In this document: in pieces, positions 61,505 to 63,776 of the stretch | Position numbering within the stretch: the stretch's first letter is position 1 | How the letters are laid out: every line of letters begins with the position of its first letter | Notes under the pieces: generated by a model | The model's input: only the letters and a program-made list of their open reading frames with translations | What the model was told of the DNA's origin: nothing | Database searches by the model: none | Translations under genes and position numbers: made by a program | IMG/VR virus record: IMGVR_UViG_2778261375_000003 | DNA: 64,000 bases | DNA from: a virus | Lineage: Duplodnaviria > Heunggongvirae > Uroviricota > Caudoviricetes | Direction: 5' to 3' (one strand)

Positions 61505-61736
61505 ACAGAACGAAAAAGCTATCGCTCAAATTGCTGATTATATCCCGCGTGCGTGCCGGGGTATGCAGTTGCAGGAAGCCAAAGCGCGCCTGGAGAAAAA
61601 AATTGCGCTCTATATTGATGACGGCTGTGATTCCGCCGTTCTTAACGCGGCGTTCGCACCAGCTCTTAACTGTCACACTCGGGAGTCTTTTTTTTCGTGC
61701 ATCGCAGCGCAACTCCGCCAAGGAGGCAACCAGTGA
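61497..61736 (+). CDS. hypothetical small protein ending in AAQLRQGGNQ
   Basis: 79-aa ORF; its 3' end carries the conserved junction AAGGAGGCAACCAGTGAG. Confidence 0.35.
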   Translation: MFKQNEKAIAQIADYIPRACRGMQLQEAKARLEKKIALYIDDGCDSAVLNAAFAPALNCHTRESFFSCIAAQLRQGGNQ

Positions 61737-62377
61737 GTAACCGTTTTTACATGATGTGCTTGCGTGAAACTGTGGGTAATAACGCCTCATTCCATTGCCA
61801 TAACGGCAATGGTTACAGTTCTGATATCGATCGAGCACATGTTTACACGCAGGAAGAAGCCCAAAAAGCCTGGAATTGTGGTCGAGATATCGATCAGCCT
61901 GTTTGCGCTGATAGCGTGGATGCAATGGCTGTGTGGCACGTTGATTGCCAGTACATCCCTACAGAAAGCCTGATTGAGTCAGATTGCACTGAGTATGTGG
62001 CCTACAAAAAAGGTAGCTGGAACGGCAACGATGTTTACTGGCTTCAACACGGTGGATTGCCAACAGATGACTTCAGTAAAGCGACCATCTTTAGCGTCGT
62101 CAACAAAAACGAACCAGGAATAGTTTGGTTGCCATTTTCCATTGCTGATGCAGCAAAGCGCCGGACGTTCAATATCAATAACTTTAACCGCAGAACAATG
62201 GTTCAGGGCGCAGGTTTGGTCATGCCTGACTGGTTGAAAGAGCAGAACAGAAGAAAGAAGTCGCGAAGCGGGAAGGTGCGTTGGAATTGTCCGCATTGCG
62301 GAAAAATAACCTGGCAGTACAGCCCATATGATTTTGAAGGCTGTAGTGATTACAACTGTGAAGGATGGCGAGAATGA
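61733..62377 (+). CDS. Cys/His-rich hypothetical protein
   Basis: Start taken at GTG 61733 inside the conserved junction; HCHNGNGY, CPHCGK and CSDYNCEGW clusters. Confidence 0.4.
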   Translation: MSNRFYMMCLRETVGNNASFHCHNGNGYSSDIDRAHVYTQEEAQKAWNCGRDIDQPVCADSVDAMAVWHVDCQYIPTESLIESDCTEYVAYKKGSWNGNDVYWLQHGGLPTDDFSKATIFSVVNKNEPGIVWLPFSIADAAKRRTFNINNFNRRTMVQGAGLVMPDWLKEQNRRKKSRSGKVRWNCPHCGKITWQYSPYDFEGCSDYNCEGWRE

Positions 62378-63027
62378 CAATTGACTATCAGGTACTGCGT
62401 GAGGCGGCAGAAAAGGCAACACCAGACGAATGGGTCGCATTTATTTCGACGGATACTGGTACTTATGCGGTGCACACGCCCGGTGATGAACGATGTGAAG
62501 ACGTTATCAAATGGACCGGCTTTGATGGACAGAAAAATGCAGAGAACAACGCTCGTCATGTTGCCGCGTTCAACCCAAAGGTTGCACTGGAGCTGCTTGG
62601 TGAAATTAAGTGCTTGGAGGACACAAATATTGATGCCACGTGCCGAATTTCAGAGCTTGAGACTAATCTCGCTGCGCTGGTGGCAGAGAACGCTGGGCTG
62701 AAACACGCAATGGCCGTAACTCTTGAGCATGTGTCGGTCACGGATGCAGGGCAGGCCGGAGTTGCTGCAATGATTATCAACGATGCCCTGCACCACAGCG
62801 AAACTCCAGCTACCGATGCTTTCCTGTCTGAAGTGCGGGCGCAGGGGGTGGATGCTGCTATAGAAGCTGCAAAAAATCTGGTGGCCCAAGAATATGAGTA
62901 TAAGGATTTCAAAGCGGCGCAGAGTGATTGCTGTATGCACCCTGGTTCAGACCTGGTAGGGAAGGTTGAAATGACTGAGTGGTTAGTTGACTTTGCTGCC
63001 CAGCTTCGCAAAGGAGGCAACCAGTGA
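62374..63027 (+). CDS. hypothetical protein (N-terminal YQVLREAAEKA family), ends in AAQLRKGGNQ
   Basis: Start taken at ATG 62374; N-terminus paralogous to the next gene; C-terminus paralogous to 61497-61736. Confidence 0.4.
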   Translation: MTIDYQVLREAAEKATPDEWVAFISTDTGTYAVHTPGDERCEDVIKWTGFDGQKNAENNARHVAAFNPKVALELLGEIKCLEDTNIDATCRISELETNLAALVAENAGLKHAMAVTLEHVSVTDAGQAGVAAMIINDALHHSETPATDAFLSEVRAQGVDAAIEAAKNLVAQEYEYKDFKAAQSDCCMHPGSDLVGKVEMTEWLVDFAAQLRKGGNQ

Positions 63028-63776
63028 GCGAAATTAATTACCAGGCACTGCGTGAGGCGGCGGAACGTGCAATTCCAGCAATGGAACGCCTGTTAATGTT
63101 GCCAGCTGATGATGATTTGTTAAGTGAACAGGAACTTAAAGATTACGGTGTGGATATTGATGCGCTCAACGCCTTCAAATTTCTGACCGGACCAGAAACC
63201 GTGCTGGCGCTGCTGGATGAACGGGAAAGAAACCAGCAATACATAAAACGCCGCGATCAGGAGAACGAGGATATTGCGCTAACGGTAGGGAAGCTGAGAG
63301 TTGAGCTTGAGGAAGTAAAACAACACGCTGAAGAATTATCCGAAACCAAGGCTGTTCGTAACCAATGGCGGCCAGATATTTGCCCAATAACCGGACGTGC
63401 ATTTTTCATGTGGATTGAGCATCCAACATTGGGAAATGTGCCGACATATGGTGGCCCATTAGATAGTTACACCATTCCAACAAAGGACGGTGACGGTGAG
63501 TTTTCATGTGAGCGTTACGATCATGATTTTGGCGGTTGGGTAGAAAGCGAATGTCTTGGGTTATATCTGATTGATGATAGAGAACAATGCAGGGTCTACG
63601 AACTGGAGGAACGCGTTAAGGAACTGGATGCTCGGGAAATATCGCTCCCGGAACGTAGCAGCATGCTTCATCGAACAGATTTTCACGATGATTACCAAAC
63701 GGTAATGGCATACAAAGTTTCTGAAGTCATCGCTGCAATCCGCGCCGCAGGCATTCGCATCAAAGGAGGTGAGTAA
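63024..63776 (+). CDS. hypothetical protein (N-terminal YQALREAAERA family)
   Basis: GTG start inside the second copy of the conserved junction; N-terminal paralogy with the upstream gene. Confidence 0.4.
   Translation: MSEINYQALREAAERAIPAMERLLMLPADDDLLSEQELKDYGVDIDALNAFKFLTGPETVLALLDERERNQQYIKRRDQENEDIALTVGKLRVELEEVKQHAEELSETKAVRNQWRPDICPITGRAFFMWIEHPTLGNVPTYGGPLDSYTIPTKDGDGEFSCERYDHDFGGWVESECLGLYLIDDREQCRVYELEERVKELDAREISLPERSSMLHRTDFHDDYQTVMAYKVSEVIAAIRAAGIRIKGGE

Follow-up and report, generated by a model that had tools for sequence, protein, structure and literature searches.

An 18-base stop/start junction reused between unrelated accessory genes of a P1/P7-like phage-plasmid and other temperate phages

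The 64,000-nt stretch of viral DNA analysed here (the window) is that of a P1/P7-like phage-plasmid, as evidenced by the C4 antisense RNA and tRNAs, the C1 operators, and the pap and humD neighbours in close relatives. Nine C1 operator-like sites were found in the window against 0.26 expected, one of which (59499-59515) precedes the gene string under study and aligns with an annotated C1 binding site of P7. A search of 61000-64000 found no promoter-like or terminator-like sites. The gene block at the 3' end of the window, which has patchy counterparts in Stx and other lambdoid phages, comprises the following features, together with the upstream operator.

59499-59515, + strand: P1-type C1 repressor operator-like site, the equivalent of Op(hea) of P7, upstream of the gene string; one mismatch to ATTGCTCTAATAAATTT
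61497-61736, + strand: 79-aa gene, phrog_1344, function unknown; its last codons, QGGNQ-stop, are junction copy 1; a CDS in a near-identical plasmid
61720-61737, + strand: junction copy 1, with AAGGAGG at 61720-61726, spacer CAACCA, GTG at 61733-61735 and TGA at 61734-61736; extended repeat from 61704
61733-62377, + strand: 214-aa gene, phrog_2457, Upf87.6 of P7; GTG start; first gene of the cassette; not Ea22-like
62374-63027, + strand: Ead/Ea22-family gene 1, 217 aa; head MTIDYQVLREAAEKA, internal PATDAFLSEVRAQG motif, tail DFAAQLRKGGNQ
63011-63028, + strand: junction copy 2, with AAGGAGG at 63011-63017, GTG at 63024-63026 and TGA at 63025-63027; extended repeat from 62995
63024-63776, + strand: Ead/Ea22-family gene 2, 250 aa; head MSEINYQALREAAERA, lambda-Ea22-like ERNQQYIKRRDQENEDIALTVGKLR segment, tail AAGIRIKGGE
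63762-63778, + strand: second tail-plus-start junction type, AAAGGAGGTGAGTAATG, reading KGGE-stop, with a TAATG overlap with gene 63776-63952

The junction is the 18-mer AAGGAGGCAACCAGTGAG, two exact copies of which lie on the + strand at 61720-61737 and 63011-63028. The initial annotation had recognized a two-copy 18-bp junction at gene ends, with coordinates (61717-61735 and 63005-63026) that were a few bases off. No further copy with up to two mismatches is present elsewhere in the window, and the chance expectation calculated from shuffles is 0.01. The 18-mer sits inside a longer repeat of 34 nt at 85% identity (61704-61737 versus 62995-63028), with a period of 1291 nt (61720 to 63011), and a two-gene cassette (61738-63010) lies between the copies. 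Each copy spells (Q/K)GGNQ-stop for the upstream ORF, which ends in CIAAQLRQGGNQ at 61497-61736 and in DFAAQLRKGGNQ at 62374-63027, both directly followed by the stop. The same bases provide the next gene with the Shine-Dalgarno sequence (SD) AAGGAGG and, after a spacer of 6 nt, with a GTG start overlapping the TGA (GTGA), in line with the earlier reading that one set of nucleotides serves as the upstream C-terminus and as the ribosome-binding site (RBS) and start codon of the next gene. Both GTG starts (61733 and 63024) match the RefSeq annotation of a plasmid 99.3% identical to the window.

Every gene boundary in 61301-63776 has a stop/start overlap of four bases (GTGA, ATGA) or five (TAATG), with the SD inside the upstream gene at the usual distance; for instance, the stop of 61733-62377 and the start that follows share ATGA (62374-62377). 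These junctions possess the architecture of a translationally coupled pair, namely an overlap together with an SD located 5-9 nt upstream and within the upstream gene. In related loci, a relative of the second junction type, CGCATCAAAGGAGAGTGA(T/G)ATG, stands before over 15 different genes.

Profile searches revealed a full-length match of the product of 61497-61736 to the PHROG family phrog_1344 (2.6e-52); neither this gene nor that at 61733 has a Pfam match. The genes 62374-63027 and 63024-63776 are true members of the Pfam family Ead_Ea22 (PF13935), with 83.4 bits (3e-23) and 103 bits (2.7e-29), respectively, well clear of the 27-bit curated gathering threshold by which membership was defined; the Ea22-like character proposed earlier is thus borne out. 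The former also shows patchy matches to 13 PHROG families. The two share an N-terminal module (62379-62425 versus 63032-63078, 47 nt at 79%), in which 11 of 15 residues are identical. This module had been assigned to the two proteins that follow the junctions; it is real, but its owners are the genes starting at 62374 and 63024, and of these the latter alone follows a junction copy, whereas the gene directly after copy 1 (61733-62377) begins MSNRFYMMC and lacks it. Copy 1 in the window joins two non-Ea22 genes.

The 18-mer was found in at least 120 viral contigs, from which 140 distinct contexts were analysed. Most of these contexts were retrieved using the 18-mer itself, and the invariance seen there is therefore partly built in, the exception being a sample anchored on the Ea22 head. 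The constraint on the junction is exerted on the nucleotides and not on the peptide. After the CTTCGC anchor, the exact sequence AAAGGAGGCAACCAGTGA is found in 89 of 98 distinct contexts, out of 128 possible synonymous spellings; the spelling of the Ala-Ala-Gln-Leu-Arg codons directly upstream varies. In P7 and the Stx2c phage LC645408, the upstream gene reads the junction bases in another frame, ending in ...EATSE-stop and ...KEAASE-stop. In the sample for which the downstream Ea22 head alone served as anchor, all 49 junction-family members have AGGAG and TGA unchanged, and the variation lies mostly in the spacer and is mostly amino-acid-changing. The exact 18-mer occurs at 31 of the 77 Ea22 starts in this sample, and about five other junction types are also in use at such starts. 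At an assumed fixed offset, 70 of the 77 starts overlap a TGA; the remaining seven appear to be ATGA overlaps misread by that offset. Because of the codon fixation, the out-of-frame retention and the spacer-centred variation, we assign the junction a first role as RBS and start codon. The K/R-G-E tail of Ea22 proteins, which likewise coincides with AAGGAG followed by a start, reads as the translated RBS of the next gene, and so does KGGNQ. The AAQLR part of the tail is conserved at the amino-acid level and may have some peptide function.

On comparison of the 140 contexts, the sequences before the 18-mer fell into 45 groups and those after it into 38; the two sets are linked by the 18-mer in 103 combinations, among which 38 complete 2x2 tables were found. 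The frames are open for at least 50 codons upstream in 134 and downstream in 135 of the contexts, consistent with a position at a gene boundary. The flanks are mostly unrelated: the junction alone is common to 8535 of 9730 context pairs, and one flank is common as well in 1045 pairs. Breakpoints coincide with the junction. Upstream identity ends at most 29 nt from the 18-mer in 643 of 649 one-sided pairs; downstream, it ends within 5 nt in 184 of 396 pairs, and in 157 more at +20 to +39, inside the Ea22 head. At copy 1, homology to the window breaks in three independent relatives: it starts at 61717 in the Stx2c phage LC645408 and at 61722 in P7, and stops at 61740 in the Shigella phage Ss-VASD. 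In the last, one junction takes the place of the junction-cassette-junction arrangement of the window, the 1.29-kb two-gene cassette being absent, and this junction aligns with both copy 1 and copy 2. In the plasmid pUTME-12-1, homology breaks at 62801-62841, inside gene 62374-63027.

The initial annotation had taken the junction as a linker that shuffles N- and C-terminal modules of proteins. This part does not hold, as the 18-mer lies between genes and reassorts whole genes; the upstream gene lacks the Ea22 head motif in 122 of the 140 distinct contexts, and the downstream gene lacks it in 28. Module shuffling within proteins does occur, at other short conserved stretches, namely the Ea22 head and the PATDAFLAEVRAQG motif. 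The KGGNQ-type tail is found on proteins with different heads and cores, including a DUF2737 protein, an HNH_3 endonuclease-domain protein and phrog_1344. The 61-nt context of copy 2 is matched in 1036 of 5426 complete E. coli genomes, about a fifth. A scan of one genome per species (596 Gb, both strands) gave 21 exact hits of the 18-mer against about 17 expected by chance, of which only two Escherichia records are credible. The junction is, on present sequences, confined to Escherichia-type phages, and part of its identity could therefore be due to recent common descent.

Several explanations of this pattern can be weighed against each other. According to a Hendrix-type model, the junction is kept only as a good RBS and start, recombination is random and illegitimate, and selection retains the joints at gene boundaries, so that the junction would mark the exchanges and not direct them. 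The constraint pattern is indeed that of a translation-initiation region, 18 bases are short for homologous exchange, other junction types serve at Ea22 starts, and about half of the lambdoid mosaic joints are without a trace of flanking homology (PMC2327257, PMC3945230). However, unrelated genes would not arrive separately at one 18-mer, including its spacer, and the shared bases must be identical by descent; therefore, one breakpoint lies inside or a few bases from the 18-mer in each of the 103 combinations. Moreover, selection acting on random joints would leave different scars between genes instead of one sequence, which makes this model unlikely. A functional C-terminal peptide, a terminal helix (...F-A-A-Q-L-R-K-G-G-N-Q) that binds a common partner and for which nucleotide identity is secondary, is less likely still. 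Such a peptide would agree with a tail carried by proteins of different heads and cores, and with the hydrophobic-A-A/E-Q/E-L/I-R stretch just upstream, which is kept as amino acids with varied codons. Within KGGNQ, however, codon choice is near-fixed, the Asn is freely replaced by Ser, Lys, Cys or Ile, and the bases are kept even when read as KEATSE-stop or EATSE-stop; in addition, the parallel K-G-E tail is AAGGAG plus a start.

A short identical site between many interchangeable genes, with a cassette between direct repeats, also resembles the target of a dedicated site-specific recombinase in an integron-like cassette array. Yet the site has no dyad symmetry, and the breakpoints scatter over tens of bases with no single fixed position. 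RNA and single-strand folds of 101 nt around each junction were no better than those of shuffles (z-scores of +1.09 and -0.90), no Rfam family matched in 61000-64000, and no recombinase gene is linked to the junction in annotated relatives; an integron attC-type site, which calls for imperfect inverted repeats folding as a hairpin and for a linked integrase, was rejected on these grounds, and we consider any such recombinase target very improbable. Folding of the 140 contexts, which are not independent, gave an SD pairing probability of 0.66 compared to 0.60 in controls, a small shift that hints only faintly at masking of the SD. The 18-mer is also distinct from Chi (GCTGGTGG): its reverse complement is CTCACTGGTTGCCTCCTT, in which the nearest octamer, ACTGGTTG, differs at two positions. 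The least credible explanation is a local tandem duplication of the end of an Ea22-type gene with no wider meaning. The Ea22-family genes are adjacent and the 1291-nt period spans about two genes, as a duplication would have it, but beyond the 34-nt repeat the flanks of copy 1 (phrog_1344, phrog_2457) are unrelated to those of copy 2, and the 18-mer occurs with dozens of flanks in the viral contigs. The unrelated flanks and the wide occurrence rule this explanation out. The wide occurrence, the flank combinations and the breakpoints also go against the refuting condition set in the initial annotation, a junction not conserved in any related element.

Anatomy, nucleotide-level constraint, flank reassortment and breakpoint positions are direct observations. 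We propose, as the probable explanation, that the junction is a translational-coupling cassette doubling as a conserved boundary sequence for short-homology recombination, in the sense of the Susskind-Botstein and Clark model. The 18-mer is the region where translation of the downstream gene is initiated, and it coincides with the five final codons and the stop of the gene before it. The genes would belong to one tightly packed, C1-repressed operon of the P1-like phage-plasmid, in which a ribosome reaching the upstream stop most likely goes on to translate the following gene, that is, coupling by termination-reinitiation. Because the same cassette recurs at the boundaries of otherwise unrelated genes, it forms an identity island of 18 to ~100 nt between many unrelated accessory genes of E. 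coli temperate phages. A homologous or short-homology crossover could take place there by the host RecA or by phage enzymes of the Red/RecT/Erf type, and any crossover inside the cassette would preserve both reading frames and the coupling. Gain of the two-gene cassette through a crossover at the junction, or the capacity to lose it in that way, would produce the arrangement seen in the window, with one copy on either side.

Red was reported to act efficiently on diverged sequences, and RecET to allow rare exchange between very short ones (PMC2327257). Eighteen exact bases are short for efficient RecA- or Red-mediated exchange, and longer homology (~35 nt upstream plus ~45 nt downstream) is available only where the AAQLR tail meets the Ea22 head. 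The linker proposed at the outset stands as a mosaic boundary, found across many elements and with breakpoints concentrated on it; its role in crossover is inferred from comparisons. The operation of coupling and the placement of crossovers inside the junction, as opposed to its merely surviving beside them, are likewise inferred. A broader version, which we find doubtful, is that the small tail-plus-start set of this gene pool (RKGGNQ-stop/GTG, IKGE-stop/ATG and GWRE-stop/ATG among others) constitutes a standard plug-in interface. Selection would keep it because temperate phages of different families, lambdoid prophages as well as P1-like phage-plasmids, can exchange accessory genes through it by short-homology recombination, with frames and coupling never broken. 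If so, Red/RecT/Erf-type enzymes would find real recombination hot spots in the junctions, and the Susskind-Botstein linker model would have a direct example open to testing.

Whether linkers or random sites filtered by selection are the source of phage mosaics is an old question, for which the present junction is an unusually clean and abundant case, with one 18-mer in more than 100 flank combinations; it offers a natural linker at which recombination could be measured. The Ea22 C-terminal tails (K/R-G-E, KGGNQ) that are listed as unexplained in the literature also find a simple account in it, and genes are seen to have passed between P1-like plasmids and Stx-converting phages in a region with a probable function in host interaction.

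Translational coupling via an overlapping stop and start is well established, as in the trp operon. The present junction shares with ordinary coupled junctions the stop/start overlap and the SD inside the upstream gene at the usual distance; however, those are specific to one gene pair, whereas the 18-mer is reused near-unchanged between dozens of unrelated pairs. The lambda-type Ea22 comprises a short N-terminal segment, a coiled coil and a C-terminal domain, forms a tetramer and favours lysogeny (PMC10834534, PMC7093339). The mosaic domain make-up of lambda Ea22 and the Stx-phage ea22 was already reported, with the K/R-G-E tail left unexplained (PMC7093339, PMC10834534). The window genes and lambda Ea22 have in common the Pfam family and the short head (MSEIN.QALREAAE); gene 63024-63776 also shares with lambda Ea22 the ERNQQYIKRRDQENEDIALTVGKLR segment, the GIRIKG(G)E tail and a GTG start overlapping the upstream stop. 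The window genes differ in the C-terminal domains and in location: lambda-type ea22 is a gene of the exo-xis interval, within the leftward early operon of a lambdoid phage, whereas the window genes are in a P1-type operon of a P1/P7-like phage-plasmid, downstream of pap.

The conserved boundary, or linker, model reportedly goes back to Susskind and Botstein in 1978 and to the work of Clark et al. in 2001 on HK620. A full-text literature search, with Clark 2001 and Susskind and Botstein 1978 outside its scope, returned no prior description of the 18-mer or of KGGNQ. The boundary-sequence model is accepted for some phage mosaics (PMC3233612, PMC2327257). Similar to the lambdoid boundary sequences, the 18-mer is a short sequence common to dissimilar genomes, located at gene boundaries, with coinciding breakpoints and many module combinations. 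By contrast, the linker here is an identifiable functional element, consisting of an SD, a spacer and a start overlapping a stop, and is present in P1-like phage-plasmids as well as in lambdoid prophages. Altogether, the junction illustrates a known idea clearly and in many instances, and is not a new kind of system.

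The junction, an 18-bp sequence AAGGAGGCAACCAGTGAG, occurs in two exact copies at two gene boundaries of the window, as the initial annotation had claimed. With up to two mismatches permitted, no third site was found in the window, and shuffled sequence gave 0.01 matches. The longer repeat around the 18-mer spans 34 nt with 85% identity (61704-61737 versus 62995-63028).

Features of the window discussed in the text
22310-22516 and 44358-46211: C4 antisense RNA with a1/b1 target element, and three tRNA genes
59499-59515: C1-operator-like site, equivalent of the P7 site annotated as operator of the hea operon
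60426-61304: PAPS-reductase-domain protein
61301-61504: small protein of unknown function (phrog_1226)
61497-61736: small protein of unknown function (phrog_1344)
61720-61737, + strand: junction copy 1, exact match
61733-62377: 214-aa protein (phrog_2457; Upf87.6 of P7)
61738-63010: cassette between the junction copies (phrog_2457 gene and Ea22 gene 1), repeat period 1291 nt
62374-63027, + strand: Ea22 gene 1 (Pfam Ead_Ea22, 83 bits; cut-off 27)
63011-63028, + strand: junction copy 2, exact match
63024-63776, + strand: Ea22 gene 2 (Pfam Ead_Ea22, 103 bits; cut-off 27)
63762-63778: window variant of the K-G-E junction, AAAGGAGGTGAGTAATG
after Ea22 gene 2: 58-aa protein

At both copies, AAGGAGG is followed by 6 nt and a GTG, the last two bases of which open the upstream TGA stop (GTGA); the same nucleotides indeed supply the end of the upstream ORF, the ribosome-binding site and the start of the next gene. 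The ORFs upstream of copy 1 (79 aa) and copy 2 (217 aa) end in CIAAQLRQGGNQ and DFAAQLRKGGNQ, respectively, and the gene boundaries at both copies match the RefSeq annotation of NZ_AP045803, a plasmid that is 99.3% identical. The suspected likeness to Ea22 is borne out for the two proteins above the Pfam cut-off. The shared N-terminal module also exists (62379-62425 versus 63032-63078, 47 nt at 79%, 11 of 15 residues), but it sits in the genes that begin at 62374 and 63024, and is absent from the gene directly 3' of copy 1, which starts MSNRFYMMC.

The window is a P1/P7-like phage-plasmid. The C4 antisense RNA, its targets and the tRNAs are typical of P1-type phage-plasmids and aided this identification. 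In addition, the window has nine C1-operator-like sites versus 0.26 expected, and its best full-length relatives are E. coli plasmids of 90-136 kb with humD nearby. From 61301 to 63776, stop and start overlap at every gene boundary (ATGA, ATGTTTAA, GTGA, ATGA, GTGA and TAATG); no promoter-like or terminator-like match was found in 61000-64000, and no sigma-70 promoter-like match in 58900-64000, versus 5.3 (sd 2.0) expected from shuffles. Together with the C1-operator-like site, this organization marks the genes of the block as one tightly packed operon, presumably under C1 repression. A strong terminator-like hairpin (58940-58968) lies 3' of a 420-aa coiled-coil gene, and a second one (59548-59570) just 3' of the C1-operator-like site.

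Comparison of 140 distinct 18-mer occurrences with 500-nt flanks (all 9730 pairs) revealed extensive reassortment of the neighbouring genes. The junction only is shared by 8535 pairs, defined by loss of ungapped identity within 150 nt on both sides; the upstream gene alone is common to 396 pairs, the downstream gene alone to 649, and both flanks to 150. The contexts fall into 45 upstream and 38 downstream groups that occur in 103 combinations, including 38 complete 2x2 tables, in each of which two upstream groups both pair with the same two downstream groups; looser clustering yields 29 by 32 groups and 76 pairings. The homology breakpoints at the junction are sharp. Identity is lost within 29 nt 5' of the 18-mer in 643 of the 649 downstream-only pairs, and within 5 nt 3' of it in 184 of the 396 upstream-only pairs, a further 157 of which lose identity at +20 to +39, where the Ea22 head (the short N-terminal segment) ends. 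Classified by a test for the head motif, 95 contexts have a non-Ea22 gene followed by an Ea22 gene, 27 have two non-Ea22 genes, 17 have two Ea22 genes, and one has an Ea22 gene followed by a non-Ea22 gene; the non-Ea22 heads downstream are of nine different kinds.

The Stx2c phage LC645408 is 99.3% identical to the window from 61717 to the window end and unrelated 5' of 61717, and the homology of P7 begins at 61722. Shigella phage Ss-VASD aligns at 92.5% identity from 60427 to 61740, directly followed by an Ea22 gene related to the second one of the window. As the single junction of Ss-VASD could be aligned to both window copies, the window has, relative to Ss-VASD, a junction-cassette-junction layout, as would be expected for cassette gain or loss via crossover at the junction.

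Because it is the sole sequence common to many otherwise unrelated neighbouring genes, we propose that the junction is the joining place for recombination. It would represent a portable cassette for translational coupling, at which homologous or short-homology recombination may join unrelated genes; any crossover within it would leave both genes and the coupling intact. Where an AAQLR tail is joined to an Ea22 head, the similarity island spans ~100 nt at 80-90% identity, which RecA and phage recombinases can work on, the latter being tolerant of divergence (PMC2327257, PMC3945230). Non-Ea22 partners have just 18-34 nt in common, and exchange with them should be rarer. Alternatively, mosaic joints might arise at random and then be filtered by selection; this might still hold for other joints of the region, but cannot explain an identical 18-mer, spacer included, between unrelated flanks.

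A search that allowed every synonymous spelling of K-G-G-N-Q-stop after a CTTCGC anchor recovered the exact AAAGGAGGCAACCAGTGA spelling in 89 of 98 distinct contexts. Immediately 5' of KGGNQ, the codons for Ala, Ala/Glu, Gln, Leu/Ile and Arg are variously spelled. In P7 and LC645408, the upstream gene reads the junction bases in another frame and ends in EATSE-stop or KEAASE-stop, with the GGNQ frame closed. A sample of 77 distinct starts, retrieved solely by the nucleotides of the downstream Ea22 head, comprises 31 with the exact 18-mer, two with its 16-nt core and ten near variants, the rest belonging to about five other junction types. At an assumed fixed offset, 70 of these starts overlap the upstream TGA; the other seven appear to be one-codon-shorter ATGA overlaps misread by that offset. 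Among the 49 junction-family members of this sample, AGGAG and TGA are invariant and the first start-codon base is G in 46 and A in three; the changes are mainly in the spacer (positions 7-11) and mainly non-synonymous (Asn to Ser, Lys or Cys; Gly to Asp or Val). The fixed spelling, the other-frame reading, the head-anchored sample and the spacer variation together argue that in the KGGNQ part the nucleotides, not the peptide, are conserved, in the pattern characteristic of a translation-initiation region. Farther 5', by contrast, the residues hydrophobic-A-A/E-Q/E-L/I-R do seem to be constrained at the protein level. No RNA element was apparent: folding at both junctions was no better than in shuffles, Rfam gave no match there, and Shine-Dalgarno pairing across contexts was only slightly higher than in controls (0.66 versus 0.60).

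The 2.5-kb block has matches in 441 phage records, mainly Stx-converting and other lambdoid phages, and in 2777 of 5426 complete E. coli genomes. No more than two phage records and 23 complete E. coli genomes span 80% or more of it; thus the block is a mosaic. The 18-mer is present in at least 120 viral contigs, and so conserved in related elements. The 61-nt context of copy 2 is found in 1036 of the 5426 genomes (968 chromosomal and 283 plasmid places), and the context of copy 1 in 117, plasmid-borne in 101. A one-genome-per-species collection gave 21 exact 18-mer matches versus ~17 by chance, of which only the two Escherichia records are credible. To judge from this distribution, the junction is a property of the E. 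coli phage gene pool, without ancient conservation.

According to PMC7093339, every Ea22 protein ends in K/R-G-E. In the related loci (L001-L243), this tail (IRIKGE-stop) is encoded by CGCATCAAAGGAGAGTGA(T/G)ATG, which contains AAGGAG, a stop-containing spacer and an ATG that serves as the start of more than 15 different downstream genes. The lambda (NC_001416) counterpart is AAAGGAGAGTGAGATCGG; 3' of lambda ea22 the ATG is lost (ATC where related phages have a start after KGE), leaving a five-codon remnant. From the sequence pattern, the K/R-G-E tail, like KGGNQ, is most plausibly a translated ribosome-binding site, which would explain the tail left unexplained in PMC7093339. In lambda (L244, locus 1093-1314, minus strand), the GTG start of ea22 overlaps the TGA of a 73-aa ORF, which has four cysteines (CCECG...CRTCASC) and no listed CDS in the stretch of NC_001416 examined.

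The initial annotation had interpreted the junction as a linker that shuffles protein modules; the observation is confirmed and this interpretation partly supported. Shuffling within proteins does happen, but its joints lie inside genes, away from the 18-mer: homology of plasmid pUTME-12-1 to the window breaks within the PATDAFLSEVRAQG motif (62801-62841), and RKGGNQ-tailed upstream proteins possess at least five different heads, including a DUF2737 protein, one with a DUF4406-type head and one with an HNH_3 endonuclease domain. When 16-mers were ranked by flank variety, in a set partly baited with the junction, the junction came first, followed by the Ea22 head, the K-G-E junction, the PATDAF motif and the Ea22 ERNQQYIKRRDQENEDIALTVG segment. 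The conserved motif (T)PATDAFL(A/S)EVRAQGV (62801-62860) recurs in many upstream proteins that differ in the rest of their sequence and has the look of a recombination joint within a gene; its region has a 33-nt match in an unrelated upstream gene of LC645408. In viral contig L181, the gene upstream of the junction encodes 239 aa with the common MAEWEEMKQM head, an AQLRKGGNQ tail and a core matching Pfam HNH_3 endonuclease (7e-14), which appears to have replaced the usual protein middle. Compared with window 62374-62410 and 63204-63772, the single Ea22-like gene of P7, upf88.3 (L246, 3644-4330), looks like a chimera of the Ea22 gene 1 head and the Ea22 gene 2 body, connected via 72 nt found in neither.

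In the classic Susskind-Botstein model, short boundary sequences that are conserved between phages serve as sites of homologous recombination; support from some lambdoid phages (Clark et al. 2001) has been summarised (PMC3233612, PMC2327257). The mosaic make-up of Ea22 genes, in which a short head and a coiled coil are combined with exchangeable C-terminal domains, is likewise already on record (PMC10834534, PMC7093339). No text mentioning the junction sequence was found in a literature search whose scope excluded the original boundary-sequence papers. As both the boundary-sequence model and the mosaicism of Ea22 are published, the junction is a well-populated case of an already known kind of boundary sequence.
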